Origin: an uncultured Acidobacteriota bacterium
GTDB taxonomy: Bacteria; Acidobacteriota; Terriglobia; Acidiferrales; UBA7541
Assembly: GCA_963744235.1 (NCBI GenBank)
Contig: CAVUSU010000008.1
Coordinates: 96,277-128,276 of the forward strand
DNA length: 32,000 nucleotides
Direction: 5' to 3'
Positions 6,005 through 22,572 of this stretch are shown in pieces; the first letter of the stretch is position 1, and every line of letters begins with the position of its first letter. Made by a program: the position numbers and the translations under genes. The notes under the pieces were generated by a model. The model saw nothing but the letters and a program-made list of their open reading frames with translations. It was not told the DNA's origin and ran no database searches.

Positions 6005-6220
6005 GTGAAGAAGAACAAGAAAATGAAGTTGAAGACGCACCGGGGCGCTGCGAAGCGTTTCAAGATCACCGCCACCGGCAAGATTATGCGCTGGCACTCC
6101 GGCAAGCGCCATTTGCTGGGAACAAAAAAGCCGCGCCGCATGCGGAAGCTCCTCAAGGACGTCGAGGTGAATCCCGCCGACGTGCCGAACGTGCGCCGGG
6201 CGTTGCCGTACGGAATTTAG
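6005..6220 (+). CDS. rpmI: 50S ribosomal protein L35
   Basis: KTHRGAAKRFKITATGKIMRWHSGKRHLL is the L35 signature. GTG 6005 is preceded by GAGGG (5996-6000). Alternative start ATG 6023 (MKLKTHRGAAKRF). Confidence 0.9.
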   Translation: MKKNKKMKLKTHRGAAKRFKITATGKIMRWHSGKRHLLGTKKPRRMRKLLKDVEVNPADVPNVRRALPYGI

Positions 6221-6467
6221 TTTCGGGTTTCACCGTGTTAGGCAGAGCGTAATCCGCCGCGGCGGGCCTGCCAGCCGGACGAGCTGAAATTTTCAGCTTG
6301 CTTTGCTCCCGCACCGATTTACGCGGGAGCTCAACGAACACGCCGCGGAGAATTGCGCAGCAGCGATTGCTCCGTTCCCGCCCGTTTCGGGGAGCGGTGC
6401 CTTGCCTCCGCACCCTCTCCGCGTAACGATCACCGATTTCGACGTCCAATCATAGGAGAACAAGGCA

Positions 6468-6902
6468 ATGCCTCGCGTAAAACGTGGAACCAAGCGCCGC
6501 GCCCGGCGCAAAAAACTGCTTAAGCACGCCAAAGGATTTTTCCTCACGAAGGGAAAGCTCTACCGGTCGGCAAAAGAGGCGGTGAACCGCTCGCTGCGCT
6601 ACAGTTATCGCGACCGGCGAAATCGCAAGCGCGATTTCCGTACGCTGTGGATTCAGCGCATCGGGGCGGCGGCGCGCAATAACGGCACCACCTACAGCAA
6701 GTTGATTCACGCCTTCAAGCTCGGCGGCATCGAGATCGACCGCAAGATTCTGGCGGACATGGCGGTGCATGACGCCGAAGGATTCACCGCGCTGGTCGGC
6801 TCCGCGAAGCAGCACCTCGCGAAAGCGCCGTACCCGCGAAGTCGTCGCAGCCCGCGGCGTAGCATCCGCGCGAATCTGGACGGCAAATGTAGCGTTGCTT
6901 GA
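6468..6902 (+). CDS. rplT: 50S ribosomal protein L20 (with ~25-aa atypical C-terminal extension as sequenced)
   Basis: [24 protein letters not shown]...[22 protein letters not shown] is the L20 signature. AGGAG SD at 6454-6458. Homology seems to end near ..[11 protein letters not shown]; the remaining R/S/P-rich tail is suspicious. Confidence 0.9.
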
Positions 6903-6992
6903 TGACGGCGCTGGCATTGCAGGCCCGCCCGGGCTGAAACCGCGGAGCATGCTATGTCGCTGCGGCACGGCCTCGAGTGCTGACCACTCGCC

Positions 6993-7336
6993 ATGACGAC
7001 CGATTCGACGAAACAGACCCTCGCGCAACTCGGTGTGTGATTCGCCGGAAAAAATTGTGGCCGAGTTCGAAGAGGACTCGCGGGCGATTCGAACGCACAA
7101 GTCGCGTCGGCGTCGGTGTCGGATAATGGGAGATTCCGTGCGCCAGCATGGACTCGGTCGCAAGTCAGGTTTCCTCTCGCTCATCACGGACAATTGGCTC
7201 AAGCCCGCTCCGCCGGAACTGAAGCGCGTCGTTGGCCAGGAATTGAACAAGCTAAAGGCGCACATCGAATCACGTTCTCGAAGAAGCGAGACGCGATCAA
7301 ACCACTGAGGAACAGTCTACCGCCGCGCGCGACAAG
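6993..7336 (+). other. pheS: Frame-disrupted remnant of the pheS N-terminal (coiled-coil) region
   Basis: PheS-like N-terminal text is spread over three frames. These are MTTDSTKQTLAQLGV* (ATG 6993); ..EKIVAEFEEDSRAI.. and ..LGRKSGFLSLITDNWLKPAPPELKRVVGQELNKLKAHIE.. (frame of 7033, stop 7306-7308); and ..HVLEEARRDQTTEEQSTAARDK (frame of 7337, open from 7256). Confidence 0.55.
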
Positions 7337-8092
7337 ATGGATCTCTCACTTCCCGGTATTGAGCGCGCCATCGGCACTCGCCACCTGATCCGCCAGACGT
7401 TCGACGAACTTCAGCGGATTTTCCTCTCGATCGGCTTCAGCGTGGTGGAAGGGCCGGAAATCGAGACGCCTTACTACAATTTCGAGGCGCTCAATATTCC
7501 CGAACATCATCCCGCCCGCGACAACATGGACACGTTCTACATCGAAGGCACGCGCGCGCCCTATCTGCTGCGAACGCACACTTCGCCGATGCAGATTCGC
7601 ACGATGGAAAAGCAGCAGCCGCCCGTGCGCATCATCGTTCCGGGAAAGGTGTATCGCCGCGACAACCCCGATTCCACGCACGGCTACATGTTCCACCAGA
7701 TCGAAGGCCTGGCCGTCGACACCGACATCACCTTCTGCGATTTCAAGGGGACGGTGGAATATTTCGTTCGCGAATTTCTGGGACCGAAAGTGAAGACACG
7801 GCTGCGCCCCAGCTTTTTCCCGTTTACGGAGCCGTCCGCGGAAGTGGACGCGACGTGCCACGTTTGCGGCGGGACTGGCTGCCGCGTCTGCAAGCAATCC
7901 GGCTGGATCGAGTTGTTCGGCGCGGGCATGGTGAACCCGGCCGTGTACGGCTTCGTGAATTACGACCCCGAGCGGCTCTCCGGATTCGCCTTCGGAATGG
8001 GAGTCGACCGTTTAGCCATGATGAAGTACGGCGTGCCCGAAGTTCCGCTGCTATTCCAGAATGACGTCCGCTTCCTCCGCCAGTTTCCCTGA
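7337..8092 (+). CDS. pheS: Phenylalanine--tRNA ligase alpha subunit, catalytic core (intact ORF lacks the N-terminal domain)
   Basis: 251-aa ORF with PYYNFEALNIPEHHPARDNMDTFYI, class II motif 2 (RLRPSFFPFTEPSAEVD), a CHVCGGTGCRVCKQSGWIE zinc knuckle and motif 3 (SGFAFGMGVDRLAMM). Confidence 0.9.
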   Translation: MDLSLPGIERAIGTRHLIRQTFDELQRIFLSIGFSVVEGPEIETPYYNFEALNIPEHHPARDNMDTFYIEGTRAPYLLRTHTSPMQIRTMEKQQPPVRIIVPGKVYRRDNPDSTHGYMFHQIEGLAVDTDITFCDFKGTVEYFVREFLGPKVKTRLRPSFFPFTEPSAEVDATCHVCGGTGCRVCKQSGWIELFGAGMVNPAVYGFVNYDPERLSGFAFGMGVDRLAMMKYGVPEVPLLFQNDVRFLRQFP

Positions 8093-8126
8093 CGAAAAGC
8101 GCAGCCGTCAAAACGAAACTTGGCAT

Positions 8127-8140
8127 GCTATCCAGATAGC
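8127..8140. promoter_or_regulatory. Inverted repeat GCTATC-CA-GATAGC, candidate antitoxin operator upstream of the TA pair
   Basis: Perfect 6-bp arms at 8127-8132 and 8135-8140, ending 4 nt before ATG 8145. TTGGCA (8120-8125) is adjacent. Type II antitoxins commonly autoregulate through such palindromes (established knowledge); binding here is inference. Confidence 0.4.
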
Positions 8141-8144
8141 TTAG

Positions 8145-8474
8145 ATGAAACCGATCAGAGTAAGCGTTGCCGAAGCGAAGAACAAACTCCCAGAGCTAAT
8201 CAGGGCAGTCGAGAATGGTGAATCCGTGACGATTTGCCGCCGCGGTGTGCCCGTTGCGGATTTGGTCCGCACCAGCAAGAGCGCCGGGGAAAGGCCGAAG
8301 TTCGGGACGCTGCGAGGAAAGGTCGTATTCAACGATCCTAACTGGTGGAAACCAATGACCGAGGATGAAGTAGAGGCCTTCCTGAAGGACGCTAGGAAAT
8401 GCGCCTTCTCCTCGACACCGTCACTTTCGTATGGGCGACAACTTCGCCCGAACTCCTTTCAAAAAGAGCGCTAG
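8145..8474 (+). CDS. Type II antitoxin, Phd/YefM-like (VapB-position partner of the PIN toxin)
   Basis: N-terminus IRVSVAEAKNKLPELIRAVENGESVTICRRGVPVADLV is typical Phd/YefM antitoxin text. The ORF as sequenced runs 76 nt into the toxin gene. Confidence 0.75.
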   Translation: MKPIRVSVAEAKNKLPELIRAVENGESVTICRRGVPVADLVRTSKSAGERPKFGTLRGKVVFNDPNWWKPMTEDEVEAFLKDARKCAFSSTPSLSYGRQLRPNSFQKER

Positions 8475-8779
8475 CCGCACTGCAAGACGAAAATGCGATA
8501 CGTGAGATGAGCGCTATTTCCCTCTCCGAGCTGGCTATCAAGCAAGCAAAGGGAAAGTTCAGTTTCGGGAGAGAGGATGCTCTTGCCAGCATCGCGGACC
8601 TCCGAGTGCGCATTCTTCCCTACACTGCGAATCACGCCTACGAGCTATTTAGCCTGCCTTATCATCACGGGGATCCATTTGACCGCCAGATCATCGCCCA
8701 GGCGTTGGTCGAGAAGATTCCGGTCGTGACCTCTGACGAGAAATTCGGTCTCTACAAAAATCTCAAGGTCATTTGGTAA
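8399..8779 (+). CDS. vapC: Type II toxin VapC (PIN-domain ribonuclease)
   Basis: 126 aa with MRLLLDTVTFVW (first acidic PIN residue), ..SAISLSELAIK.., ..GDPFDRQIIAQALVEKIPVVTSDEKF (C-terminal acidic residues). Classic PIN layout directly downstream of the antitoxin. Confidence 0.85.
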   Translation: MRLLLDTVTFVWATTSPELLSKRALAALQDENAIREMSAISLSELAIKQAKGKFSFGREDALASIADLRVRILPYTANHAYELFSLPYHHGDPFDRQIIAQALVEKIPVVTSDEKFGLYKNLKVIW

Positions 8780-8801
8780 TTTGCATCTTCTCCCATCGGT
8801 C

Positions 8802-11163
8802 CTACATTTCCGGACCGCGTCCGGACGCCGGCGGATGCATCTGGTACTCGTGCGGCGGTTCGGCGCCCAGCAAGTAACGCACGAAGTAGTCCCAGCGGCG
8901 GCGCATCATGTAGTTGCTCTCGGCGCCGTAACCGTGATGCTGGTTCGGCAGCAGCAAAAGATCGAAATCCTTGTTCGCTTTGATCAAGGCATCCACCACG
9001 AGCAATGTATTGTACGGCGGAACGTTGTCGTCCATGGTGCCGTGGGTTAGCAGGAGGCGTCCCTTCAGGTTCTTCGCGAGATTTTGATTCGCCTGATCGT
9101 CGTAGTTCGTAGTTCCGTCCGCATTCTTCGCCAGCAAACCCTGATAGCGTTCGCCCCAGTCGTCCTCGTATTCGCGATTGTCGTGATTCCCCGATTCGGA
9201 GATACCTACTTTGAAGAAGTCGGGGTAGCGAAACATCGCGTCGGCCGTCGCATAACCGCCACCCGAGTGTCCCCAGACGCCGGCTCGCTCGATATCGATC
9301 CAGGGATATTTCGCGGCCAACTGTTTCATCCCGGACACCTGGTCGGGCAGAGTGTTGTCGCCCATGTTGCCGTAGTAGAAGTCGTGAAATTTCTTTGACC
9401 TCAGCGGGTTGCCCATCCCCTCGATTTGCACAACCACGAATCCAAGTTCCGCGAGCGCCTGGCAATCACCGCGCGAGTCGGCGAACGACCAATTGCCCAC
9501 ACTTCCGCCCTGCGGCCCGGGATAGATGTTGTTGACGATCGGATATTTTTTGCTGTGGTCGAGGTTCGTTGGCTCGAACATCAGCCCGTACAAATCGGTG
9601 ACGCCGTCGCGCGCCTTCACTGTGATAGGAATCGGCGGCTTCCATCCGGCAGCCACCAAGCGCGAGACGTCCTCCTTCTCGACCGTGGACACCACTTTCC
9701 CAGTTTCGTCGCGGACCACTGTGACCCGCGGCACGTCAGGCTTGGAATAGCTGTCTACAAAGAAGCGGCCTGAAGGCGACATCGCTATGTCGTGATTGCC
9801 GTCTTCGGGAGTGAGCAGCGCCAGGTTCTTGCCGTCGAATCCGACGCGGTACAAATGGCTCAAGTACGGGTTGCCTTTTTCGCGGCCGTCGGCGAGAAAG
9901 TAGACCTTGCGGTTCTTCTCATCCACCCTCAGCACCTGCGTCACAGCCCACTCGCCCGACGTAATCTGATTCTTCAACCGGCCGGTGACCAAATCGTAGA
10001 GATAGAGGTGAGACCAGCCATCGCGCTCGGAACACCAGATCACTTCGTTCGACGCCGTCAGGTAACGCCAGTTCACGCGGCCCTGGCCCGATTCGAACTG
10101 AGTGGCCGCGGTTTCTTCCAGGACGTCGCGCACCGCGCCGCTGGCGTCATCGGCGACGCGCAACTGTTCACGCTTGTGGTCGCGCGAGGTGGAGACGAAC
10201 GCCAGATGCGTCCCATCCGGACTCCATTCGACGTCGGCCCACTCGCCGCCCCGGCATGCAACGTCGTCGCACAGCGTGGAGCGGTGCTGATCGGGCGGAA
10301 GCTGCAGGCGAATCACCTTCGGGCCGTCCAGGTGGATGATCACGCGCTGGATCGTGGTCACCGCGTTGTCGCCCGGAAGCGGATACTTCCACGCCTCAAG
10401 CCTTGGGATGGCCGACCTTGGTTTCCACGAGATACATTTCTCCCGCGCCTCGCTGGTCCTGCTGGAACGTCGCAATTTTCTTCGAGTCCGGCGACCACAT
10501 CAGAATGGGGCGGTCACTGTGGATCCAGCCGGCATTGTCAGTCGCGTACCCGAAGTCCTTCACTCCATCCGTGGTGAGTTGCGTCTCCTTGCCGCTCGCA
10601 ACGTCGCGGACCCAAAGATTCCAGTCACGAATGAAGGCGGCGCTCTTGCCGTCGGGCGACTTCACGTCGTCGCGAGGCCCGGCAGCGGGTCCACTTGCTT
10701 TGCCCGTGGATGCGCAGTGATTCGCCTGTAAGTCGCAGTTCCACTCTTGTCCCCGAAGGCTGAAAGAGATCGACTGCTGATCCGCGGAGAACTCAAACGT
10801 CATGAACGGCAGGTGCGCCGCGTCATAAGTCTTGCCCGCCGCCGAGGACAGCGCCGCAGCCACCTTGGCGTGATCGAATGCAGGCTGGCGCGTGCCACGA
10901 GCCGCATCGAACATCACGAACTCGATTCCGTCGGGTCCGGTGTTGCGATACCAGAAACGGTCATCCGGCAACCACGTGGCGCGCACCCTGTGAAATACAA
11001 GCGGTGATGTGTTGTAAGTCAGGAACTTTTCGGCGCGCTGGTAATCGGCCGCCGTGACGACTGCGGCGCTCGGCTGTTGAGCGGCAACCTGCGTAGCGGT
11101 AACGGCAACGCCCGCAGAGGCAACAGATAAGATTAAGATAAGTGCACGCACGCGAAATCGCAT
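8802..11163 (-). pseudogene. S9 family (DPP-IV-like) serine peptidase, split by one apparent 1-nt indel near 10401-10407
   Basis: Upstream ORF (to stop 10396-10398): signal peptide MRFRVRALILILSVASAGVAVTATQVAAQ (ATG 11163, SD GGAGG 11174-11170) plus a beta-propeller-like region ending ..GEMYLVETKVGHPKA*. Downstream ORF 8802-10475 continues in another frame with ..PRLEAWKYPLPGDN.., catalytic GHSGGG (GxSxG) and C-terminal His (NQHHGYG). Confidence 0.8.
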
Positions 11164-11367
11164 CCGCATCCTCCAAAAGTTATGGATCTTGGGCGGGCGG
11201 TAGCATCTCCCTTGCTCGCTTCCCAAGTCAAGCCGCGGGCCGCGAGCGGGCGATTCCGCGAGTTTCAATTTGCGTCCGCGCCCCGGTTTACGCTAGCGTG
11301 GTTTGATTCGGATGCGTATCGCAGGCTCGGCAGGCGAGCGCTACGATTTCGATTCGGCGGCACGTCC

Positions 11368-13472
11368 ATGAAAATTCTCTACAACTGGTTGAAGGAATTC
11401 GTCGAGGTAACGGCACCCGCGAAGGAGCTGGGTTCGCGGCTCTCGCTCGCCGGCGTCGCCATCGATTCGATTGAAGAGACGTCCGCCGGCCCCGTGCTCG
11501 ATGCGGAAATTACGTCAAACCGCCCCGATTGCCTCGGCCACTATGGGATGGCGCGCGAAGTGGCGGCCATTTACCGGCTGCCGGTGAAGCCGGTTCAGCC
11601 GAAGCTGAAGGAGTCCGCGGAAAAGGCCGCGGATGCCGTGCGGGTGGGAATCGAAGCGCCCGATTTGTGCGGCCGCTTCACGGCGCGCGTTGTGCGCGGC
11701 GTCAAAGTTCAGCCATCGCCGGATTGGCTTCGCCAGCGCCTTGCTGCAATCGGCCAGAACTCGATCAACAACGTGGTGGATGTCTCCAACTACGTGATGT
11801 TCGAGCTTGGCCACGCCTCGCATGCATTCGATTTCGATAAATTGAACGAGCACCGAATCACCGTGCGCCGCGCGAAGCCCGGCGAAAAAATTCGCACGCT
11901 GGACGGCATCGAGCGCACGCTCACGAAAGATATGTGCGTGGTCAGCGACGCAACCCATGCGGTGGGGATCGGCGGGCGTAATGGGCGGCGCGGAAAGCGA
12001 AATCGGCTTCAGCACGCGGAACATTCTGATCGAGTGCGCCTGGTTCGATCCCATCGCGATTCGCCGCGCGTCGAAGGCGCTCGGTTTACGCACCGAAGCG
12101 TCGTACCGTTTCGAGCGCGGCGCCGATCCGGAGATGGCGGAACTCGTCTCGCGGCGCGCCGCCGAATTGATTCAGCAATTGGCCGGGGGCGAGATTCTGG
12201 CCGGGGTTGTGGACGTCTATCCCGGGCGGAAACAGCCGCTCAAGATCGAATTCGCGCGGAAAGAACTTCTGCGAGTGATGGGCGCGGACGTGCCCGACCG
12301 CGACATCGAAGAAATTCTCGGCGCACTGGGGTTCCACCCGGTTCGCATCGATGCGAATCGTGGCAGCGCGGGTTCGCTTGCGGCGCGGTGGGAGTGCACG
12401 CAGCCATCCTGGCGTCACGACGTCGCGCGCGGTGTCGATTTAGTGGAGGAAGTGGCCCGGCATTACGGGTACGACAAATTCCCGCCGCGACTTCCGCCCG
12501 CCAAGCAGCCGGCGCATCGCCTGCCTCATGCGGAGGCGATGGACCGCCTGCGCGAACGCCTTGTGGCTCTCGGCTATCAGGAAATCGTCGAAATTCCCCT
12601 CGTCGATCCAAAACGCGATGAGCTGTTCCGTCCTGAAAATGTGACGCCGGCTGTGATCGGCAATCCGCTCGCGGAAGACGCATCCGTGATGCGCTCGACG
12701 GGGATTGTCAGCATGGTGGGCGCGATCGAATGGAACCTGAACCACGGGCAGCGAAATCTGCGGCTCTTCGAAATCGGCAAAGCATACGAAGTGCGCAACG
12801 GCGAACCCATCGAAACGCCGGTCCTCACGCTCGGGGCGACCGGCCTCGCGCGGCAGAAAACGATTTACGAAGACGCGCGCGAGTTTTCGTTTGCGGATCT
12901 GAAAGGCGACCTCGACGACACTGGAGCGCTCGCGGGTGGATTGTCATGGCAAGCGAACGGTCCCGGCTGGCTCGCTTCGGCGCGATCCGCACAGATTTCG
13001 CTCGCCCATCGAAATGGAGGCTCAAGCGGTGACAAGCCGGTCGGCGTCGTGGGCCAGCTGGCTCGGCGGATCGCCGACGAATTCAAGCTGCGCCAGGATG
13101 TTTTCGTCGCGGAACTGCAGCTCGAGCCTCTGCTCGCAGGAATCGAGTCTGCGCGCGCCGCCTTGCGTTTCACGCCCCTGCCCCGCTTTCCCGGGGTCGA
13201 ACGCGATTTCTCGCTGGTGCTCGACGACGGAGTTTCGTTCGCAAGCGTCGCGGAAACGATTCGTTCTCTCGGAATCCCGGAGCTTCAAAGCATCGAGCCT
13301 GCGGACCTTGTTCCGCGGAGGCCAAGTGCCGCCGGGAAAAGTCTCGCTGATGATTCGCGTGACGTTCCAGAGCGCGCAGGCGACCCTCACGGACGCGCAG
13401 CTTGCCGATTTTTCCTCGCGCATCGTTGAGGCGCTGCAAAAAAACCTCGGCGCCACCTTGCGCGCATCCTGA
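11368..13472 (+). pseudogene. pheT: Phenylalanine--tRNA ligase beta subunit, frame-disrupted at two sites as sequenced (~11971 and 13310)
   Basis: Frame 1 from ATG 11368: MKILYNWLKEFVEV...DATHAVGI. Frame 2 from ~11972: AGVMGGAESEI...(B3_4/B5/core)...LQSIEPADL. Frame 3 from 13311: FRGGQVPPGKVSLMIRVTFQSAQATLTDAQLADFSSRIVEALQKNLGATLRAS* (FDX-ACB domain). Each junction is restored by removing one G. Confidence 0.9.
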
Positions 13473-13541
13473 GAAAGTTCACCGTTCCCCAACAAATCAA
13501 AGCAATGCAAGTACTTGCGCCCGCCCCAGGGATGAAAGAAA

Positions 13542-13850
13542 ATGGTTGCGCCCCGGCGGGAGCGTGAGAACGTGAAAATTGAAATTTACGACCAGATATA
13601 CAGCGTCAATTCAGGCCAGAGTGACGAATATCTCCAGGAACTCGCGTCGTACGTAGACGCGAAAATGCGCGAAGTAGCCGAAGCCACCCACATCGTGGAT
13701 TCGGTCAAAGTCGCGGTGCTTGCGAGTCTCAACATCGCGGACGAACTTTTCACGCTTCGCGAACGTCAGCAACAGCTCGAAGGGCCTCTGCGTAAACGCG
13801 TCGAGAAGTGCGTCGACCTGGTCGAGAAGGCGATCGAGCGCTCGAACTGA
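13542..13850 (+). CDS. zapA: Cell division protein ZapA
   Basis: VKIEIYDQIYSV..SDEYLQELASYVDAKMREVAE....DSVKVAVLASLNIADELF matches the ZapA family pattern. The position after pheT is a common synteny. Alternative start GTG 13572. Confidence 0.8.
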   Translation: MVAPRRERENVKIEIYDQIYSVNSGQSDEYLQELASYVDAKMREVAEATHIVDSVKVAVLASLNIADELFTLRERQQQLEGPLRKRVEKCVDLVEKAIERSN

Positions 13851-13948
13851 CTCCAGTTCGCCGTTTCGGCAACTTCCCTGAGTAACCGATTCTCGCTCCC
13901 GTACATCTGATGTAGTATTGAGCTCAGCTTTCCGCGACGCCGCTTGAA

Positions 13949-14191
13949 ATGCCCCGTTGCAAGCCATTTCGGTTTGTTGTCGTTTCTCTGGCGCTCCTGA
14001 CGCTAATGGCGGCGGTGACGCTTGGCGGCGTCTGGCACCACCATCCAAGTTCTTCAGAAGCAAACTGTTCGATTTGCCATTTGAACCACCAGCCCATGGG
14101 TCAGCCCCTCGCGGTTGACCGCTCTCCTGTTTCGCCCCAATCGGAACGAAGCCTGAACCTCCGGAGCCATTTTTCGCGCCCACTCCGCTAG
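13949..14191 (+). CDS. Small membrane-anchored His-cluster/CxxCH protein (copy 1), upstream of czcC
   Basis: 80-aa ORF with a basic N-terminus, one hydrophobic helix (FRFVVVSLALLTLMAAVTLGGV), then WHHHPSSSEANCSICHLNHQ. It is paralogous in architecture to ORF 22291-22572, co-directional with czcCBA, and ends 118 nt before ATG 14310. Confidence 0.6.
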   Translation: MPRCKPFRFVVVSLALLTLMAAVTLGGVWHHHPSSSEANCSICHLNHQPMGQPLAVDRSPVSPQSERSLNLRSHFSRPLR

Positions 14192-14309
14192 TCCGCCACG
14201 TTCCCGCTCGCGCCCCACCGTCCGCTTAATCTGTTTCTCGGCGATCCCGTGGCTGCCTCGCGGCCGATCAATTCACGTGTAAGTCCCAGAGGTGAAGGTA
14301 AAAGCGCCT

Positions 14310-15596
14310 ATGCGTATACAACGTGTACGTCTTGTATGTTCCGCTGTTGCTGTGTGTTTTGCTGGATTGACGTTTGGCCTGTCGCTTTCGGCACAAACGC
14401 AAGGGCCGGTGCGAATTACGCTCGACCAGGCGATTCAAATGGCTCTCGAGCACAACCACACCCTGCTGGCCGCCCGCACCACGATCCAAGAGAGCGAAGC
14501 GCAGGAAACGACGGCAAATTTGCGGCCAAACCCGACTCTTTCGGGCGACGCGCAGTTCTTGCCGTTCTTCGAGCCGGGAAATTTCAATTCCACCTACATT
14601 GAGAACAACGCGCAGTTCGACATCGGCATAGGTTACTTGTTTGAGCGCGGCAGGAAGCGCCAGCATCGCTTGCAAGCGGCAAAGGATCAGACGGCGGTAA
14701 CCACCTCAACGGTCTCCGACAACGAGCGCACTTTGATGTTCCAGGTGGCCTCGCAGTTCATCAGCGTGCAGCTTGCCGAATCGACGCTCGATCTGGCCGA
14801 GCAGGATATGAAGAGCTTCCAAAATACGGTGGACATTAGCCAGGCGCGCTACAAAGCAGGCGACATCAGCGAGGATGATTTCCTGAAGATCAAGCTTCAA
14901 TTGCTGCAATTCCAGACCGACGTCTCGCAGGCCACGCTCGCGAAGATGCAGGCGCTCGCCGGTCTGCGGCAATTGGTGGGGTATCAATCGGTGTCAGCCG
15001 ATTTCGATGTGGCTGGTGACTTCGATTATCAGGTGTTGAAGCTCGATCTCGAGGATCTGCAAGCGGCAGCACTACGCGACCGCCCGGACCTGCGCGCGGC
15101 GGTGCAGGGTGTGGCAGCGGCGAAAAGCCAGTACGAGTTGGCCAAGGCAAACGGAAAGCAGGATGTGACCGCGTCAATCGACTACACGCACACTGGAGAC
15201 GTCAACAGCGCCTCGCTTTTCGGCAACATCGCCCTGCCGATTTTCAACCGCAACCAGGGAGAAATCGCCCGGACGAGATATGCCATCACGCAGGCGCAAG
15301 AGCAGCAGTTGGCGGCCAGCGACCAGGTGATGACCGACGTGCTGGACGCCTATGAAGGGGTTCGCGACAACGACAAGGTGATTGCGCTCTATCGCTCGGG
15401 CTACCTGGATGAAGCGAAAGAAGACCGTGACATCAGCGACTACGCGTACAAGCGCGGCGCCGCAAGCCTGCTCGATTTTCTCGACGCCGAGCGCAGCTAT
15501 CGCGCGACGCAGCTCGCCTACCGCCAGTCGCTAGCGGCATACCTCACGGCGGTAGAACAGCTTCGCGAAGCTGTGGGAACGAGGTCTTTGCCATGA
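14310..15596 (+). CDS. czcC: TolC-like outer membrane factor of heavy-metal RND efflux system (CzcC family)
   Basis: Signal peptide MRIQRVRLVCSAVAVCFAGLTFGLSLSAQ, then the typical OMF start (ITLDQAIQMALEHNHTLLAAR) and two OEP-type repeats. The stop overlaps the next gene's start (ATGA 15593-15596). The ORF could also start at GTG 14292. Confidence 0.85.
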   Translation: MRIQRVRLVCSAVAVCFAGLTFGLSLSAQTQGPVRITLDQAIQMALEHNHTLLAARTTIQESEAQETTANLRPNPTLSGDAQFLPFFEPGNFNSTYIENNAQFDIGIGYLFERGRKRQHRLQAAKDQTAVTTSTVSDNERTLMFQVASQFISVQLAESTLDLAEQDMKSFQNTVDISQARYKAGDISEDDFLKIKLQLLQFQTDVSQATLAKMQALAGLRQLVGYQSVSADFDVAGDFDYQVLKLDLEDLQAAALRDRPDLRAAVQGVAAAKSQYELAKANGKQDVTASIDYTHTGDVNSASLFGNIALPIFNRNQGEIARTRYAITQAQEQQLAASDQVMTDVLDAYEGVRDNDKVIALYRSGYLDEAKEDRDISDYAYKRGAASLLDFLDAERSYRATQLAYRQSLAAYLTAVEQLREAVGTRSLP

Positions 15597-16768
15597 AAAC
15601 GGCGCGAACAATCAACCGGCGAGATTGGGGAATCGCTGTGTCGCTTGCAGTCGCATGCGTGCTGGCCGGCTGCAGTTCAGGCGAGCGCGCGAGCGAAATG
15701 ACCTCGTATTCAGCCAAGGAAACGAAATCGGAGACACCTGAGCTTTTTACGATTCCGCAAGACCAGATGTCGCACGTGCAAGTGGTGAGTGTAGCGCCGC
15801 AGACGCTGACGCGCTCGCTGCGCTTGACCGGGGCGGTAGCCTACAACGCGTTTCACACGACGCCGGTAATTACGCAGGTGGGCGGCCCCGTGAGCCGCAT
15901 CCTGGTGGTACCGGGCCAGCGAGTGCGCGCGGGCCAGCCGCTGCTCATGATCAGCAGTCCCGACTATTCGCAGATGCGCGCGGCCTATTTGAAGGCGCGG
16001 GACGTCTATCGCGTGGCGGACAAGAACTATGCGCGAGCTCAGGACCTCTACGCACACAATGCCATCGCAGAACGCGACCTTTTGCAGGCCGAGTCCGACC
16101 GCATTCAGGCACAGGCCGATCTCGATGCGTCCGAGCAAGGCCTGAAGATTCTGGGCCTCACGAAGCCGGAGGATCTGGAGAAGATGCCGTCAACGCCGGA
16201 GATTCCTCTGCTGGCGCCGATCGCGGGCCAAGTGGTCGAGCGTGACGTCTCGCCCGGGCAATTGCTGACGCCGGGAACGACGCAGGCGTTCGTAATCTCG
16301 GACATGAGCACGGTGTGGATTCTGGCGAACGTGTATCAGGGGGATCTCTCTTACGTGAAGGTGGGCGACACTGTCTCCGTGACCACCGATTCCTATCCCG
16401 ACACCTTCCGAGGGAGGATTTCGTTCATCTCCCCGGCGCTTGATCCGAACACGCGAACGCTGCAAGCCCGGATCGTGGTCGACAACGCGGGCGAGAAACT
16501 GAAGAACAACATGTACTGCGTCGCGACAGTGACGGCCGGCATGGTGCAGAACGCGATCGCCGTGCCCGACGCGGCGGTGTTGCGCAACGATGAGAATCAA
16601 CCGTTCGTATACGTCGAGAGTGGGCCGAATCAGTTCGGCCGCAGGGCAGTTGAGATCGGGCCGAGCCAAGGCGGGGAAACACAAGTTCTGAAAGGGCTTT
16701 CGGCGGGAGACAAAGTAGTGGGAGACGGCAGCCTGTTTCTGCAGTTCGCCAATTCGTTCCAACACTGA
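15593..16768 (+). CDS. czcB: RND efflux periplasmic adaptor (membrane fusion protein, CzcB/CusB family)
   Basis: 391 aa with a lipobox-like LAGC, MFP strings (VVPGQRVRAGQPLLMISSPD; LLAPIAGQVVERDVSPGQ; ..RISFISPALDPNTRTLQARI..). Translationally coupled to czcC. Confidence 0.85.
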   Translation: MKTARTINRRDWGIAVSLAVACVLAGCSSGERASEMTSYSAKETKSETPELFTIPQDQMSHVQVVSVAPQTLTRSLRLTGAVAYNAFHTTPVITQVGGPVSRILVVPGQRVRAGQPLLMISSPDYSQMRAAYLKARDVYRVADKNYARAQDLYAHNAIAERDLLQAESDRIQAQADLDASEQGLKILGLTKPEDLEKMPSTPEIPLLAPIAGQVVERDVSPGQLLTPGTTQAFVISDMSTVWILANVYQGDLSYVKVGDTVSVTTDSYPDTFRGRISFISPALDPNTRTLQARIVVDNAGEKLKNNMYCVATVTAGMVQNAIAVPDAAVLRNDENQPFVYVESGPNQFGRRAVEIGPSQGGETQVLKGLSAGDKVVGDGSLFLQFANSFQH

Positions 16769-16782
16769 GGCCGCGAGCTTTC

Positions 16783-19700
16783 ATGATTCATCGGATCGTC
16801 CAGTTTTCACTCAACCAGCGGTTTTTGATCATGATGCTCACCGTGTTCATCGCGGTGGCGGGAGTCGTCTCGTTTCAGCGCATGCCGGTGGACGCTTATC
16901 CCGACCTTTCGCCGCCACGCGTGGAAATCATCACGCAGTGGCCGGGGCATGCGGCGGAGGAAGTGGAGCGGTTGGTGACCCTGCCGACCGAAGTGGAAAT
17001 GAACGGCGTGCCGAAGATGGAGATCCAGCGATCGATTTCGCTCTACGGCCTTTCGGACGTCATCCTGACCTTCGATGAGGACACCGATGATTATTTCGGG
17101 CGACAGGTGGTATTTCAACGGCTGAGCGAAGTGACGTATCCAACCGGCGTTACTCCAGGGCTGGCCCCACTATCGAGTCCTTCGGGGCTGGTCTACCGGT
17201 ACGTGCTGCAGAGCCCGGACCGCACGCCGCAGGAGTTGAAGACCTATGAAGATTGGGTGATCGAGCGCCAGTACAAGCAGGTACGCGGCGTGGCGGATGA
17301 CTCAGGGTTCGGCGGCACCGTAATGCAATACCAGGTGCTGCTCGATCCGGCGAAGTTGTACGGCTATCACATCACCGTGCCGCAGGTGCTGAACCAGCTC
17401 TCCGTGAACAACGCGAACACAGGCGGAGGATTCTACTCTCAAGGGGGGCAGTTTTATTACGTGAGAGGGCTCGGTCTCATCCGAGACGAGGCTGACGTAG
17501 GGAACATCATCGTGGGCACGCAGAACGGCGTGCCGGTGCGCGTGCGCGACATTGGTGAAGTGGCGATTGGCCACGCGCCCCGCCTGGGGGAATTCGGATT
17601 CAACAAAACGGATGACGCAGTGGAAGGCGTCATCATGATGCTGCGCGGCGAGCAAACGCAGAACGTGCTGCAGGGCGTCGAGGCGAAAACGAAGGATCTG
17701 AACGAGCATGTCCTTCCGCCCGACGTGAAAGTGGTGCCTTTCTACGACCGCAGCGACCTGGTGCGGCTGACGACGGACACGGTCGAGGCAAACCTGCTGC
17801 GCGGCATGGCGCTCGTACTGATTGTGCTGATCTTTTTTCTCGTGAGCTTCCGAGCGGCGGTGATCGTGGCGTTGACGATTCCGCTGGCCCTGCTCTTTTC
17901 GTTCATCTTCCTGCACGCGCGCGGCGTAGCCGCGAACCTGCTTTCGATCGGAGCCATCGATTTCGGGATCATCATCGACGGTACGTTGGTGATGGTGGAA
18001 AACATTTACCGTGAGCTCGGGCTGCGCGAGGGAAAGGAATACAACCTCCACGAAGTGATCCTGCAGGCGGCAAAGGATGTCGATCGGCCGATTTTCTATT
18101 CCGTGGCCGTCATCATCGCCGGTTACATCCCGATTTATGCGCTCAGCGGTCCGGCGGGCAAACTGTTTCATCCGATGGCGGACACGATGTCGATCGCGCT
18201 CGTCGGAGCTTTAATCCTGACCCTGACATTCGTGCCGGTGATGTGCTCAGCCTGGTTCCGGAAGGGCGTGCACGAGGCCAGGAACAAACCTTTCGAATGG
18301 CTGAAGAAAACGTATGGGGGGCAGTTGACCTGGTGCCTCGACCGCCCGAAAACGACGCTGATTGTAGCGACGCTGATTTTTGTCCTTACGCTGTTGCTCA
18401 TCCCGTTCATCGGCGGGGAATTCATGCCGCACCTCGACGAAGGCGCCATCTGGGTCCGCGCCACGATGCCCTATACGATTTCTTACGAGGAGGCCGCGAA
18501 GTTCAGCCCTCAGGTGCGCAACATCCTGATGAAATATCCGATGGTCACCGACGTCGGCTCGGAGCTGGGCCGCCCGGACGACGGCACCGACCCGACCGGG
18601 TTCTTCAACGACGAGTTTTACGTCGGCCTGAAACCGTACGGCGATTCTTCCTGGACGCAGAGCTCGATTCACAACAAAGCCGAGCTGACTGCGGACCTCC
18701 AGAAAAAGCTCGAGACGTTTCCTGGAGTGATCTTCAACTACACGCAACCGGCGGAAGACGCTGTGGACGAAGCGCTCACCGGGCTCAAAAGCGCGCTGGC
18801 CGTGAAAGTTTACGGCCAAGATCTGAATGTTCTTCAGCAGACGGCGCTCGAGATCAAGCGGCGTCTCTCCCAGGTACCCGGATTCACCGAACTGACCGTG
18901 GTCCGTGAGCTGGGCCAGCCGAGCCTGTTGGTTGACGTCGACCGAGACAAGATCGCGCGCTACGGCATCAACGTGGCCGACGTCGAAGCCATCGTGCAGG
19001 CAGCCGTAGGAGGGCAGGCAGCGACGCAGGTGATTCAGGGCGAGAAACTGTTCGATCTCGTTGTGCGGATGAAGCCGGAATTCCGCGAAGGCGCCCAGCA
19101 GATTGGAAGCCTGCTTGTCGGCACGCCCTCGGGCCAACAGATTCCTTTGAGTGAGCTTGCGAATATCCGCGAGGCGAGCGGCGCTTCGTTCATCTACCGC
19201 GAGAACAATTCGCGCTACATCGGCGTGCAATACAGCATCGAGGGGCGCGACCTTTCCAGCGCCGTCCAGGACGGCCAGCGCGCCATCGCGGACGTGGCAA
19301 AATCTCTGCCCGCTGGTTACTCGCTGGCCTGGGGCGGCGAATATAGCGAATTCCTGGAAGCCGAACACCAGATGGCAATCATCGGGCCGCTCGCGATGCT
19401 GCTGATCTTTATGATTCTCTTCGCGCTCTACGGAAACTTCAAATTCCCGGTTACGATCGCGCTCGGCGTCGTGATGACGGAGCCGGTCGGCGCGCTGATC
19501 GCGCTCAAGTTGACGCATACTCCCTTCAGCGTTTCTTCCGTGCTGGGACTGCTGGCCTTGCTCGGTGTCTCTGTGGAAACGGCCGTCATTCTGGTTTCGT
19601 TCATCAATAAGCTGCGGCTGGAGGGAAAGGATATCCGCACCGCCACGCGCGATGCTTCCTTGCTGCGGCTGCGTCCCATCATGATGACGGCGCTGGTGGC

Positions 19701-19872
19701 ATGCCTCGGCTTGCTGCCGGCCGCGCTTTCCACCGGCATCGGGTCCGATACGCAGAAGCCGTTTGCGATCGTGATCGTGGCGGGACTCCTTTCGCGGCTT
19801 CTCCTGGGCTTCTTCGTCAACCCGGTGCTGTATGAGATGGTCGCTCGCGAAGGAGACGTATTGCAGGTGTGA
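16783..19872 (+). CDS. czcA: Heavy-metal efflux RND transporter (CzcA/CusA family)
   Basis: 1029-aa intact ORF with RND architecture. TM4 reads AIDFGIIIDGTLVMVEN (DFG-DGx-VEN, the pattern I associate with divalent-cation HME-RND pumps). Confidence 0.92.
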   Translation: MIHRIVQFSLNQRFLIMMLTVFIAVAGVVSFQRMPVDAYPDLSPPRVEIITQWPGHAAEEVERLVTLPTEVEMNGVPKMEIQRSISLYGLSDVILTFDEDTDDYFGRQVVFQRLSEVTYPTGVTPGLAPLSSPSGLVYRYVLQSPDRTPQELKTYEDWVIERQYKQVRGVADDSGFGGTVMQYQVLLDPAKLYGYHITVPQVLNQLSVNNANTGGGFYSQGGQFYYVRGLGLIRDEADVGNIIVGTQNGVPVRVRDIGEVAIGHAPRLGEFGFNKTDDAVEGVIMMLRGEQTQNVLQGVEAKTKDLNEHVLPPDVKVVPFYDRSDLVRLTTDTVEANLLRGMALVLIVLIFFLVSFRAAVIVALTIPLALLFSFIFLHARGVAANLLSIGAIDFGIIIDGTLVMVENIYRELGLREGKEYNLHEVILQAAKDVDRPIFYSVAVIIAGYIPIYALSGPAGKLFHPMADTMSIALVGALILTLTFVPVMCSAWFRKGVHEARNKPFEWLKKTYGGQLTWCLDRPKTTLIVATLIFVLTLLLIPFIGGEFMPHLDEGAIWVRATMPYTISYEEAAKFSPQVRNILMKYPMVTDVGSELGRPDDGTDPTGFFNDEFYVGLKPYGDSSWTQSSIHNKAELTADLQKKLETFPGVIFNYTQPAEDAVDEALTGLKSALAVKVYGQDLNVLQQTALEIKRRLSQVPGFTELTVVRELGQPSLLVDVDRDKIARYGINVADVEAIVQAAVGGQAATQVIQGEKLFDLVVRMKPEFREGAQQIGSLLVGTPSGQQIPLSELANIREASGASFIYRENNSRYIGVQYSIEGRDLSSAVQDGQRAIADVAKSLPAGYSLAWGGEYSEFLEAEHQMAIIGPLAMLLIFMILFALYGNFKFPVTIALGVVMTEPVGALIALKLTHTPFSVSSVLGLLALLGVSVETAVILVSFINKLRLEGKDIRTATRDASLLRLRPIMMTALVACLGLLPAALSTGIGSDTQKPFAIVIVAGLLSRLLLGFFVNPVLYEMVAREGDVLQV

Positions 19873-19897: not shown

Positions 19898-21826
19898 CTA
19901 GAACTTTGCAGTCGCAGACGCCGAGGGAAGAAGCCGCGCAGAATTGAGGATAAACGCAAGCTCCGAGCTCACGTGAATGGAAGCTGCAAGCAGAGGATTC
20001 AGGAATCCGGCTGCCGCGAGACAAATCCCGATCGCATCGACAACCAGCGTGCCGCTGAAATTCTGATATATGATTCCGCGGCAGCGCCGCGCGATTTTTA
20101 GAGCCTCGACAAACTTCGTTAGGTCATTGCCAATCAGGACGATGTCGGCGCTCTCGCGAGCCACATCAGTCCCTGACCCCATTGCGACTCCGACGCTCGC
20201 CTGCAACAACGCCGGTGCGTCGTTGACGCCGTCGCCAATCATTGCGACGATGTGCCCTTCGGCGATAAGGCCTTTCACGCGTTCCAACTTCTGAGCCGGC
20301 AGCAGGTCAGCCGCCACCTCATCCACTCCCAATCCCTGGCCGACCGGCTCGGCAACCGCACGAGAGTCGCCCGTCACTAAGATCGTTCGAAGCCCCATCG
20401 ATTTTAGCGCCGTGATCGCGTCTCGGGATTCAGGTCTAAGCGTGTCTCCGATGCGAATCGTGCCGAGGAAATGCCCTGCCTTCGAAATGCCCACCTCGCC
20501 GCTGGACCCGTTCGAGTTCCATGCCGAGATTGTGATCCCCTGCTCTTCGAACAGCAGGTGATTGCCGATTACGATCATTTCGCCGCCGTCTTTGGCTACG
20601 ATGCCCTTCCCGGGCCTGTAGTCGAAGGTTTCCGGCGTTCGGCTGGCAATGCCAAGCTCGCGCGAACGATCGCGAATCGCCTTCGCAACCGGATGCTCGG
20701 AGCAGGACTCGGCAATGGCGGCTGTGTCGAGCAATATCTCAGAGCTAACACCGGGCACGGGGAGAATCTCGACGATCTCCGGCGTTCCGAAGCTCAAGGT
20801 TCCCGTCTTGTCGAGAAGAACCGTGTCTACGCGAGCTAGCGATTCGAGATGCCGGCCGCCTTTGATGATCACCCCTTGCCGCGCGGCTCGGCCGATTCCG
20901 CCCAAAATAGCTAGCGGAGTTCCCGCAGCAATTCCGCACGCGCCAGCGACGATGACCACCGAAATCGTCGAGCGCACATTGCGCGTGATCAAGAACGTCA
21001 TGGCCGCCGACGACAACGCGAAATATACGAGGTAGCCTGCCAGACGGTCGGCCAGCTTCTGAATGGGCGCGCGCGAGCGTTCGGCGCGTTCTACTTCCTC
21101 GATGATTTTTCCGTAGGTCGTGTCGCGCCCGAGTCGTTCGACGCGAATCTCGAGTGCTCCCATCTGATTCATCGTGCCGGCATACACAGTGGCGCCCGCA
21201 AGTTTTTCAGCGGGCAAAGATTCGCCGGTAATCGCGGCTTGATCGACAAAGGAATTGCCCGCAACTACCCTGCCATCCACAGGAATTCTGCTTCCCGGCC
21301 GCACGAGAACGACATTGCCGGCGCGAACCTGATCGATGGGCACATCCTGCCAGCCGTTGGGCTTTTGAACTGTAGCCGTATTCGGAAGCAGATGCAGGAG
21401 CCCTTGAATCGCCCGGCGCCCGCGTCCAACGGTGAGGTGTTCGAGAATCTCCGCGACGAGGACAAACAAAGTGATCACGAGCGCTGTGAAGATTTCCCGA
21501 ATGGCAAGAGCGGCGACGACGGCAATGGCCATCGACAGCTCCATTGTCATTCGGCGCTGGACGATGTTTTCGTACGCTTCGGCAAAGATCGGAAACGCAC
21601 CGATAGCAGTGCAAACCACGCCGAGCGCAATGATGTAAGGATTCGGGGTGCCTCGCAGAAACCAAATAGCGCCAGCAGCAGCCGCTACGAAAAGAACCCG
21701 GTTAAGGTCACGCCAGTTGAGCGGATTCGAGTGCTCGTGTACGTGGTCTTCCAAACCCTCGGGCTCGCTTTCCCGCTTGCGCTCGATTGGCGATTGCGAG
21801 TGAGGCCTTCCTACGGTATTGGACAC
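19898..21826 (-). CDS. P1B-type heavy-metal translocating ATPase, no N-terminal HMA domain, atypical TM4 motif
   Basis: 642 aa, GTG start at 21826. ITGES (actuator), DKTGT (aa 339-343) and GDGVNDAP hinge are present. The N-terminus has only a short His-rich patch (DHVHEH). VAGACGIAAGTP sits where CPC/SPC is expected. Confidence 0.88.
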   Translation of the reverse strand: MSNTVGRPHSQSPIERKRESEPEGLEDHVHEHSNPLNWRDLNRVLFVAAAAGAIWFLRGTPNPYIIALGVVCTAIGAFPIFAEAYENIVQRRMTMELSMAIAVVAALAIREIFTALVITLFVLVAEILEHLTVGRGRRAIQGLLHLLPNTATVQKPNGWQDVPIDQVRAGNVVLVRPGSRIPVDGRVVAGNSFVDQAAITGESLPAEKLAGATVYAGTMNQMGALEIRVERLGRDTTYGKIIEEVERAERSRAPIQKLADRLAGYLVYFALSSAAMTFLITRNVRSTISVVIVAGACGIAAGTPLAILGGIGRAARQGVIIKGGRHLESLARVDTVLLDKTGTLSFGTPEIVEILPVPGVSSEILLDTAAIAESCSEHPVAKAIRDRSRELGIASRTPETFDYRPGKGIVAKDGGEMIVIGNHLLFEEQGITISAWNSNGSSGEVGISKAGHFLGTIRIGDTLRPESRDAITALKSMGLRTILVTGDSRAVAEPVGQGLGVDEVAADLLPAQKLERVKGLIAEGHIVAMIGDGVNDAPALLQASVGVAMGSGTDVARESADIVLIGNDLTKFVEALKIARRCRGIIYQNFSGTLVVDAIGICLAAAGFLNPLLAASIHVSSELAFILNSARLLPSASATAKF

Positions 21827-22290: not shown

Positions 22291-22572
22291 ATGTCGCACC
22301 GCAGAACACATCGAGTGTTGGCCGCGCTTCTGGCGGGCTTCCTGCTCCTGTTTGCGTTTCAGGTTGCGACGCACACTCACGGCAATTCCGTCGGCGACGA
22401 TCATTGCCGGCTTTGCCATTTTTCGCACTCGGTGTCGCTCGACACTTCTGCTGCACCGGTTCTGGCCGCGCCGGCTGCCGTTGCCCGGTTGACGCTACCG
22501 GTTTCAACCGACCCCGCGATTGAGCTTCAATTTCACCAGCTCTCTTCCCGCGCACCTCCTGCATCGCTTTAA
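22291..22572 (+). CDS. Small membrane-anchored His-cluster/CxxCH protein (copy 2), upstream of the TonB-dependent receptor
   Basis: 93 aa from ATG 22291 (the ORF is also open from GTG 22276): MSHRRTHRVLAALLAGFLLLFAFQVATHTHGNSVGDDHCRLCHFSHS...SSRAPPASL. Same architecture as ORF 13949-14191. Ends 121 nt before ATG 22694. Confidence 0.6.
   Translation: MSHRRTHRVLAALLAGFLLLFAFQVATHTHGNSVGDDHCRLCHFSHSVSLDTSAAPVLAAPAAVARLTLPVSTDPAIELQFHQLSSRAPPASL

Follow-up and report, generated by a model that had tools for sequence, protein, structure and literature searches.

CruR (Bp2923) of Bordetella pertussis is a copper-responsive upstream open reading frame (uORF) of the DUF2946 family (PF11162) (Roy et al., mBio 2022, PMC9426467). 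A ribosome stalled at the RAPP motif of CruR prevents Rho-dependent termination in a region with more C than G (C>G) before the TonB-dependent transporter gene bfrG, and the distance from the CxxC to the RAPP motif, 45 residues in CruR, is conserved to within 1-2 residues in DUF2946 (PMC9426467). CutF of Rhodobacter capsulatus is a co-translationally exported copper sensor, in which the stall melts a stem-loop that hides the cutO Shine-Dalgarno (SD) sequence (10.1101/2022.11.11.516240; 10.1101/2025.02.05.636593). Here we describe a small gene, ORF1, at the head of the czcCBA efflux operon in a stretch of 32,000 nucleotides (nt) from an uncultured Acidobacteriota bacterium (GenBank assembly GCA_963744235.1, contig CAVUSU010000008.1, positions 96,277 to 128,276). 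This stretch is called the window below and all positions refer to it. ORF1 is probably a leader gene for czcCBA, its product of about 93 residues acting in cis as a nascent-chain metal sensor of the CruR/CutF (DUF2946-like) class.

RAPP is a demonstrated ribosome-arrest motif, characterised by biochemistry and structure, and the arrest of CruR itself has been demonstrated in vitro (PMC10951233, PMC12992588). RAPP-type peptides show enrichment at the C-terminal ends of small exported proteins whose genes lie upstream of TonB receptors and copper genes (PMC10951233, PMC12992588), and RAPP is strongly avoided in ordinary proteins (PMC12992588). A survey of CutF-like proteins found that the commonest downstream neighbours are outer-membrane (OEP) genes of resistance-nodulation-division (RND) systems, CusC/CzcC/SilC, with TonB-like genes next (10.1101/2022.11.11.516240). 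The surveyed proteins have mixed Cys/His motifs and not all are copper-specific; the data are dominated by Pseudomonadota and Bacteroidota, other phyla being minor (10.1101/2022.11.11.516240). The class, including its link to RND efflux operons, was described in 2022-2025, and the ORF1 subfamily is an unannotated acidobacterial branch of it. What is new is a strictly syntenic and unannotated acidobacterial subfamily, its divalent-metal context, a covarying hairpin in the spacer and the finding, in a single locus, of two leaders whose spacers differ.

The ORF1 gene lies at 13949..14229 on the forward strand and encodes 93 amino acids once one missing base is restored. It is followed on the same strand (14310..19872) by czcC (14310-15596), czcB (15593-16768) and czcA (16783-19872), whose products contain the Pfam domains OEP, HlyD_D23 and ACR_tran. 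When one genome per species (GTDB) was scanned with a sequence pattern, 58 loci with an ORF1-type gene were returned, all in metagenome-assembled genomes of Acidobacteriota (Terriglobia / 'Ca. Acidiferrales') except for two records labelled otherwise. The genes czcC-czcB-czcA lie directly downstream in all 58 of these species-representative genomes, and also in the metagenome loci, and zapA lies upstream in 49 of the 58. The ORF is intact in 63/63 related loci, where it encodes a protein of 93-101 residues ending ...ARAPPSA. RAPP is in frame in every one of these loci, one or two residues before the stop with the sole exception of L045 (11 residues), and the distance from CxxC to RAPP is exactly 44 residues in all 63.

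The C-terminal 63 codons of the ORF1-type genes align without gaps, so the ratio of nonsynonymous to synonymous substitution rates (dN/dS) could be computed segment by segment. The ratio is 0.16 overall, 0.06 in the metal-binding motif and 0.12 in the last ten codons, which form the arrest region. Between the motif and the arrest region it rises to 0.26-0.32, while the length of this stretch is invariant; the middle part of the protein is constrained mainly in length and is therefore ruler-like. An ORF that is intact with an exact 44-residue spacing in every locus, at this dN/dS, is more than chance would give, and ORF1 is a conserved, translated gene under purifying selection. An earlier note on the window, made from the sequence alone, had suggested looking for homologues in synteny upstream of czcC and for departure from neutral evolution, and both were found.

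The window as given contains only a shortened version of this gene. It presents an ATG-initiated ORF of 80 residues (MPRCKPFRFVVVSLALLTLMAAVTLGGVWHHHPSSSEANCSICHLNHQ...) at 13949-14191 (+), whose frame is broken at about 14125, and the earlier note described the gene in this form. Alignment of the DNA with the near-identical contig L004 and with other relatives shows that the window is short of one C in a CCC run, reading TCTCC at 14123..14127 (+) where L004 has TCTCCC. Three-frame translation places the conserved C-terminus, ...CFAPIGTKPEPPEPFFAPTPLVRHVPARAPPSA, in the -1 frame with its end at 14229. This tail (...PLSCFAPIGTKPEPPEPFFAPTPLVRHVPARAPPSA) runs beyond the apparent stop to a stop codon at 14227-14229, and the -1 frame downstream of the indel is still perfectly conserved. 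The codons for the arrest motif R-A-P-P are found in it at 14209..14220 (+). The homologues of ORF1 in the databases, three in number and with 82, 64 and 53% identity, have a length of 93-101 residues and read ...DRVPCFAPIGTKPEPLEPFFAPTPLVRHVPARAPPTA.

The missing base is one of several in the window. L004 is 98.6% identical to the window over 19.7 kb, with only four indels between the two, in ORF1, in pheT, in a TonB receptor gene and at 31277, the start of a gene for 127 residues. In about 21 kb of the window there are at least six frame-breaking single-base indels (~10404, ~11965, 13310, 14125, 25341 and 31277), which hit an S9 peptidase gene, pheT (twice), ORF1, the TonB receptor gene and the 127-residue gene. 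The frames of these genes are intact in close relatives and L004 carries none of the frame-breaking indels. Mapping at the protein level spreads pheT over three frames and the S9 peptidase and the TonB receptor over two each; in L004 the receptor ends in a canonical ...GFHF. Since the essential gene pheT is broken twice, the window has indel errors and the ORF1 frameshift is very probably one of these. The frameshift that removes RAPP is thus most probably a sequence error, and the length of 80 residues and the stop at 14191 are artefacts of the missing base, the biological ORF being 13949-14229 with 93 residues. The spacer from the restored stop to the czcC ATG is 80 nt and not the 118 nt of the earlier note, which was right that the two genes are co-directional and that czcC starts at 14310.

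If the frameshift were genuine, ORF1 would be a decayed leader that has lost its arrest motif in this organism, and the control of czcCBA would be altered or lost. The window as given does yield only an 80-residue product, and truncated or frameshifted variants of related genes occur in databases, for example P0018, P0034 and P0051. Such decay is nevertheless improbable here, given the density of indels in the window, two of them in pheT and none in L004, given the conserved -1 frame, and given that the ORF1 indel is a change in the length of a C run, which is typical of read errors. P0018, P0034 and P0051 are relatives of the second leader of the window, ORF2, which have lost the RAPP tail by an apparent frameshift or read-through as in the window's ORF1; their tail loss may reflect either sequencing errors or genuine decay. 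A programmed frameshift at 14125 was rejected because none of the other loci requires one. The window looks like an error-containing assembly, and ORF lengths in it are consequently not trustworthy; the apparent 80-residue ORF and several split genes all result from single-base indels, which is a lesson for annotation.

The restored protein begins with a basic segment (residues 1-8) and a hydrophobic helix read from the sequence (residues 9-28; 13973..14032, +). The helix could be a signal anchor or a signal peptide, and no clear AxA cleavage site is visible. AlphaFold2, run on P0001, the homologue with 82% identity, predicts a helix at residues 2-28 (predicted local distance difference test score, pLDDT, 82-96) and gives no confident structure for the remainder (pLDDT ~50-58), a picture like the one published for CruR. 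The helix is followed by the putative metal-binding motif W-H-H-H-x7-C-S-I-C-H-L-N-H (residues 29-47; 14033..14089, +). Six of its residues, H30, H32, C40, C43, H44 and H47, do not vary within the ORF1 subfamily. After the motif come 44 residues, then R88-A-P-P91 and two more residues. The layout of basic N-terminus, single helix, WHHH and CSICHLNH proposed in the earlier note is as described there, apart from the length of the protein and the gap after the histidines, which has seven residues in ORF1 and eight only in ORF2.

The same architecture recurs across the broad family. Of 59 members, 57 have HxH and 57 likewise have CxxCxxxH; the CxxC-RAPP spacing is 44 residues in 49/59, 43 in 7/59 and 45 in 3/59. 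The arrest motif is RAPP in 49 members, RGPP in six and a variant (RPPP, RSPP or HAPP) in four, and RAPP or RGPP lies one to seven residues from the C-terminus in 55/59.

The sequence CxxCH is the attachment motif for haem c, and CSICH fits it, so that ORF1 could be read as a small membrane-anchored c-type cytochrome; weak, sub-threshold Pfam and NCBIfam matches to NapC/NirT and SoxA domains (E 0.02-0.2) point the same way. The residue after CxxC is His in 43/59 broad-family members and Gln in 13/59, and it is Gln or another residue in 16/59 altogether. Since this His is often replaced, the motif is better seen as part of a His/Cys metal site than as an obligatory haem site, and the haem c reading was rejected on this ground. 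No cytochrome family matches significantly, the tail has no predicted fold, and the RAPP ruler and the strict linkage to czcCBA would be left unexplained, which makes a cytochrome very improbable indeed.

Profile comparisons support the placement of ORF1 in the CruR/CutF (DUF2946-like) class. The ORF1-family and ORF2-family profiles match in hhalign with a probability of 88% and an E-value of 2.9e-6 over 59 columns, from HxH to RAPP. ORF2 itself scores 24.0 bits (E 7e-5) against the DUF2946 model PF11162, just above the gathering threshold of 23.7, and 18 of 36 broad-family members match PF11162 at E <= 0.01, the best at 6.7e-8. A direct BLASTP comparison of ORF1 with ORF2 gave nothing significant (E 9.2), so the homology is seen at profile level only. 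ORF1 shares with the class its homology to members, the N-terminal anchor, CxxC, RAPP, the fixed spacing and the position as first gene. An ORF2-family profile search of 1.8 billion representatives gave 54 relatives and a word-indexed search with a broader alignment gave 291; all named relatives from both searches are called 'hypothetical protein' and come mostly from Acidobacteriota. The proposal in the earlier note of a real, metal-binding product of DUF2946 type, possibly a CruR-like regulatory uORF, gains support from these matches and shared hallmarks. The Bordetella paper to which it referred reports what the note had attributed to it (PMC9426467), and of its two suggested comparisons the pairwise one succeeded only with profiles and the Pfam scan only with ORF2.

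ORF1 may alternatively work in trans, as a membrane-anchored periplasmic metal-binding protein, either a CzcI-like quencher of the pump or a metal chaperone or sensor that feeds CzcB/CzcA, the gene order reflecting co-expression. ORF1 occupies the position of czcI in Cupriavidus metallidurans, whose product is periplasmic and dampens CzcCBA activity in trans (PMC10127602). CzcI is found in the CutF-like sequence network and lacks the C-terminal proline motif (Ozturk et al., 10.1101/2022.11.11.516240), whereas RAPP or RGPP is near-universal in the ORF1 family. The N-terminal helix and the His/Cys motif would fit a metal site facing the periplasm, and the strong purifying selection on the motif agrees with this. 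The invariant 44-residue stretch with its weakly constrained sequence suits a ruler better than a folded domain, however, the tail is predicted to be unstructured, and RAPP is a sequence that ordinary proteins strongly avoid (PMC12992588). RAPP and an exact 44-residue ruler are features of an arrest peptide and not of a chaperone, so the chaperone role that the earlier note had also considered is less well supported than the uORF. We regard a trans-acting role as unlikely in place of the cis-acting leader, with which it is compatible, the two not being mutually exclusive.

In the mechanism that we propose for the cis-acting leader, the ribosome would stall at RAPP with a nascent chain of 90 residues. 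The exit tunnel of the ribosome holds about 30-40 residues. The metal motif (residues 30-47) would at this point be 43-60 residues from the peptidyl-transferase centre, and would lie just outside the tunnel at the junction of ribosome and translocon. Binding of metal at the tunnel exit may alter the force on the nascent chain or its conformation, and hence the duration of the stall; the invariance of the 44-residue ruler suggests that the stall is tuned by metal binding at this junction. The duration of the stall would be read out on transcription and not on the initiation of czcC translation. As long as the lead ribosome is stalled, Rho would be kept away from the RNA and czcCBA would be transcribed; its release would lead to termination. 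With an efflux pump, one would expect metal to prolong the stall and turn the pump on.

The RNA downstream of the metal motif is consistent with such a read-out. A C-rich, G-poor tract with little structure, a candidate Rho-utilisation (rut) region, extends over ORF1's 3' half and the first part of the spacer (14120..14260, +). The excess of C over G reaches 0.27 in the 78-nt segment 14150-14227, the 99th percentile of the whole window being 0.218. The bias is conserved across the ORF1-type loci (mean +0.135) and ranks among the highest 2% within the respective locus in 40/62. ORF1 therefore has a C>G bubble like that of CruR, placed towards the 3' end of the uORF and in the spacer.

The spacer between ORF1 and czcC measures 58-86 nt in 57/63 loci (median ~74). 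It contains a conserved, covarying hairpin, TGGCTGC-ctc-GCGGCCG (14250..14266, +), directly followed by a box, ATCAATTCAC (14267-14276, +), which reads CCGATTCAC in most relatives. The hairpin begins 14-20 nt past the ORF1 stop and in most loci ends 39-43 nt short of the czcC ATG; it is a GC hairpin, in many cases with a tetraloop of the UUCG type. Covariance model R1, which was built on 24 sequences, found it in about 48 loci. Its covariation score is 0.359, compared with 0.202 +/- 0.02 in shuffles (0/500 reach it) and at most 0.14 in slid-partner controls, the alignment having been fitted to the model. A ribosome positioned at RAPP, or on the stop codon, does not reach as far as the hairpin. 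Together the hairpin and the box in the ~74-nt spacer could hold RNA polymerase, and we speculate that they are a polymerase pause or positioning element.

Another possible reading of the spacer is a translational switch of the CutF type, in which the ribosome-binding site of czcC is hidden by RNA structure that the stalled ribosome melts. Such a mechanism has been published for CutF and cutO, a spacer of ~74 nt is within the range that those authors deem compatible, and the minimum free energy fold of the window pairs the region of RAPP and the stop loosely with the SD region. ORF2, moreover, has a conserved anti-SD/SD helix in its spacer, as described below. For ORF1 no SD-sequestering stem-loop was found within reach of the stalled ribosome. 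In 57 loci the probability that the czcC SD-AUG region is unpaired was 0.42 in the free RNA and 0.44 with the footprint of the stalled ribosome masked, and masking raised the accessibility by more than 0.1 in only seven of the 57. Folding of the spacer as a whole does not exceed that of shuffles (z = +0.72), and the sole covarying helix is the hairpin that ends 39-43 nt before the ATG. On the basis of the z-score and the lack of effect of masking, a structure that hides the czcC SD was rejected, and a switch of this kind appears quite unlikely for ORF1. As SD accessibility is unchanged by masking, and as both the C-rich tract and the spacer hairpin are conserved, a CruR-like read-out through Rho and polarity is preferred for ORF1, the control being probably transcription attenuation.

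Several points weigh against the leader-peptide interpretation. RAPP is out of frame in the window as given. Neither the 80-residue nor the restored 93-residue ORF1 matches any family in Pfam or NCBIfam or reaches the threshold of DUF2946; P0001 scores 12.3 bits against PF11162 (E 0.3), below the threshold, and 11 of 18 members of the ORF1 subfamily match this model weakly, with a best E-value of 0.0047. The C-richness of ORF1 could merely reflect a coding sequence rich in Pro and Ala, the spacer as a whole folds at the level of shuffled sequence, and the function of its hairpin is something that we infer. Arrest, metal binding and cis-regulation are likewise what we infer for leaders of the ORF1 type. 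Finally, the published signs of regulation are opposite, and ORF1 (efflux) and ORF2 (uptake) share one architecture, so that at least one of the two must be non-intuitive in sign or decoded differently.

The paralogous leader ORF2 is encoded at 22291..22572 (+). It has 93 residues with THTH-x8-CRLCHFSH, then 44 residues and RAPP-ASL, ending ...SRAPPASL. It heads a TonB-type receptor gene (CarboxypepD_reg/Plug) that runs from 22694 onward, with a spacer of 121 nt. This motif and distance are as the earlier note gave them, and the C-terminal proline motif that it described is present in ORF2; in ORF1 the motif is absent from the 80-residue frame and was recovered only in the -1 frame. As the true ORF1 spacer is 80 nt, its argument from nearly equal spacing of the two leaders falls. 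A metagenome scan for ORF2-type genes gave five loci, and a TonB-type receptor with a CarboxypepD_reg domain lies downstream wherever the gene is identifiable, sometimes directly after czcA. The C>G maximum of ORF2 (0.32 at 22530-22607) is the second highest in the window.

In the predicted fold of the spacer between ORF2 and the receptor, an anti-SD sequence, UCUCCCAA (22589-22596), pairs with the receptor SD, UUGGGAGAG (22679-22687), and encloses two hairpins. The anti-SD is of the CUCUCCC type and lies ~16 nt past the stop, its partner being a GGGAGAG SD, and the pairing is conserved in the five ORF2-type loci that were folded. The arrangement of the ORF2 spacer would be CutF-like, and ORF1 has none like it; to judge from their sequences, the two leaders share the sensor and the ruler and differ in the spacer. 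A third subtype of leader is found in L071, in an operon of rcnR, leader and receptor, which lies opposite a 91-residue ORF followed by OEP, membrane-fusion protein and RND genes. It is conceivable, though doubtful, that the window holds two copies of one nascent-chain sensor of divalent metal (Ni/Co/Zn) with opposite outputs, turning the efflux pump on and the uptake receptor off. The sensor would be the same and the stall would be decoded by the differing spacer RNA, a pause-type hairpin with a C-rich rut tract before czcCBA and an anti-SD/SD helix before the receptor; the two units would be transcribed from similar promoters of the type used by extracytoplasmic function (ECF) sigma factors, with an RcnR-type repressor gene flanking them. 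If true, metal export and import would be under a modular, reciprocal control, with the same ruler and a different decoder. To our knowledge no such reciprocal regulation has been studied in Acidobacteriota.

The neighbouring genes bear on the metal. The czcCBA genes of the window are predicted to encode a heavy-metal RND efflux pump of the divalent-cation type: CzcA belongs to the CusA/CzcA family (TIGR00914), carries DFGIIIDG...VEN, and scores 767 bits against ZneA and 491 bits against CusA. A gene for a metal-sensing repressor of the CsoR/RcnR family (PF02583, 74 bits) lies at 21869-22147 on the reverse strand, divergent from ORF2 and upstream of a P1B-type ATPase gene, so the statement in the earlier note that no regulator is adjacent was incomplete. 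The repressor scores 102 bits with the FrmR model and 80 bits with the RcnR model, both under the cut-off. The alignment gives His3, Cys35, His60 and His64, which we take to be the Ni/Co fingerprint of RcnR. A candidate operator, TATACTATAGGGTAGTATA (22162-22180), is located 17 nt from the repressor start codon; the pattern TACT-N7-AGTA occurs once in the 32 kb (0.17 expected), and a near-identical site precedes the repressor homologue in L071. The heavy-metal P1B-type ATPase gene (TIGR01525) is at 19898-21826 (-); its product has no N-terminal metal-binding domain and no canonical CPC/SPC before DKTGT, the stretch reading VAGACGIAAGTP. The type of pump (ZneA/CzcA-like) and the RcnR-type repressor favour a divalent metal (Zn/Co/Ni/Cd) over copper.

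A promoter-like box, AAC-N17-CATCT, lies upstream of ORF1 at 13884..13908 (+; AAC 13884-13886, CATCT 13904-13908) and is followed by TAGTAT. It occurs once on the forward strand of the window. A box of this type is present in 47 of the 61 ORF1-type loci, where its distance to the downstream CxxC codons stays at ~185-191 nt, and a similar one, GAAAC-N17-CGTCT, precedes ORF2 at 22232-22256. The boxes of both leaders are ~30 nt upstream of a plausible transcription start. The consensus of ECF sigma promoters is TGnAAC-N16/17-CGTC, which the AAC-N17-C(A/G)TCT box resembles, and the tentative assignment of a sigma factor follows from this resemblance; for ORF1 the alternative is a sigma-70 promoter with TAGTAT as its -10 element. 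There is no ECF sigma gene in the window. The palindrome GTACATCtGATGTAC upstream of ORF1 was considered as an operator and rejected, being perfect in the closest relatives only; its family-wide conservation is that of the overlapping box.

No SD sequence is recognisable before the ORF1 ATG (gccgcttgaaATG, 13930-13951), nor in most relatives, and no Rfam riboswitch or other known RNA was found in the ORF1 leader, even at E <= 1. The genes czcC and TonB receptor both have purine-rich SDs. The hairpin GAAATG (13946-51)/CATTTC (13965-70), which the earlier note placed over the start codon, is present in the window and is not conserved: across the 63 ORF1-type loci the start codon is paired with a mean probability of 0.48, exceeding 0.7 in only 11. 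Directly after the czcC ATG there is a hairpin, GCGTATAC-AAC-GTGTACGT (14312-14330), followed by a T-rich run and flagged as terminator-like. Similar ACG...CGT palindromes at the czcC starts of relatives may reflect only the conserved codons of M-R-x-Q-R-V-R.

Upstream of the metal island (881-13850) are the housekeeping genes glmU-like, thrS, infC, pheS, pheT and zapA, and in the near-identical contig L004 dnaA lies downstream of the island (L004 19481-20258). This flanking places the island near the replication origin, on the chromosome and with no obvious mobile element. A 6S RNA gene (Rfam RF00013, 76.8 bits) is found at 27096-27279 (+) between the gene for a pyridoxal phosphate-dependent decarboxylase and ymdB. 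The antisense ORFs at 13611-14183 (-) and 22268-22633 (-), which have no family matches, were treated as spurious.

An unannotated 'hypothetical protein', most of whose relatives go unrecognised by Pfam, becomes a testable regulatory element that stands before czcCBA in all 58 acidobacterial species genomes examined. It would extend the CruR/CutF class to Acidobacteriota and to a divalent-cation pump of the ZneA/CzcA type. The fixed ruler of 63 loci, the covarying hairpin and the two paralogues with different spacers offer a natural data set on the control of a RAPP stall by metal that binds close to the tunnel exit.

The closest relative by architecture is CruR. Like ORF1, it is the small first gene of a metal-transport operon, with a long spacer, a product that has little structure and a C>G bubble located towards the 3' end of the ORF and in the spacer; the CxxC-RAPP distance is 45 residues in CruR and 44 in ORF1 and is fixed in both. 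CruR resembles ORF2 in having a TonB-dependent transporter downstream, whereas ORF1 precedes an efflux pump and not an uptake receptor, and this pump is of the ZneA/CzcA type and not a copper system. The motif of ORF1 is extended by conserved histidines (HxH...CxxCHxxH). ORF1 is also shorter than CruR (93 and 145 residues), has a spacer of 80 nt with a conserved hairpin in place of 162 nt, falls below the Pfam threshold and comes from Acidobacteriota. The sign of CruR regulation, in which metal relieves the stall and the downstream gene is turned off, would be counter-productive for the efflux pump of ORF1.

CutF is a nascent metal sensor that is exported while being translated, has a proline arrest motif at its C-terminus and acts only in cis on a detoxification gene, and ORF1 would share each of these properties. 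It differs from ORF1 in having CxxxC and PPP and a stem-loop that hides the SD, masking of the SD not being predicted for ORF1. The arrest in CutF depends on elongation factor P (EF-P), whereas the RAPP motif of ORF1 was reported by Fujiwara et al. as refractory to EF-P. CzcI and CzcI2 are, like ORF1, small exported proteins whose genes immediately precede czcC in an RND operon for Co/Zn/Cd; CzcI, compared here by description only, has no C-terminal proline motif and quenches the pump in trans. In ApdA/ApdP and SecM (RAGP), as in ORF1, the core arrest motif stands at the C-terminus of a small protein, exported or in the membrane, whose gene precedes the regulated one, and force on the nascent chain releases their arrest (PMC10951233, PMC12992588). 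These peptides monitor Sec/YidC and not metal, and have neither a His/Cys motif nor a fixed ruler to one.

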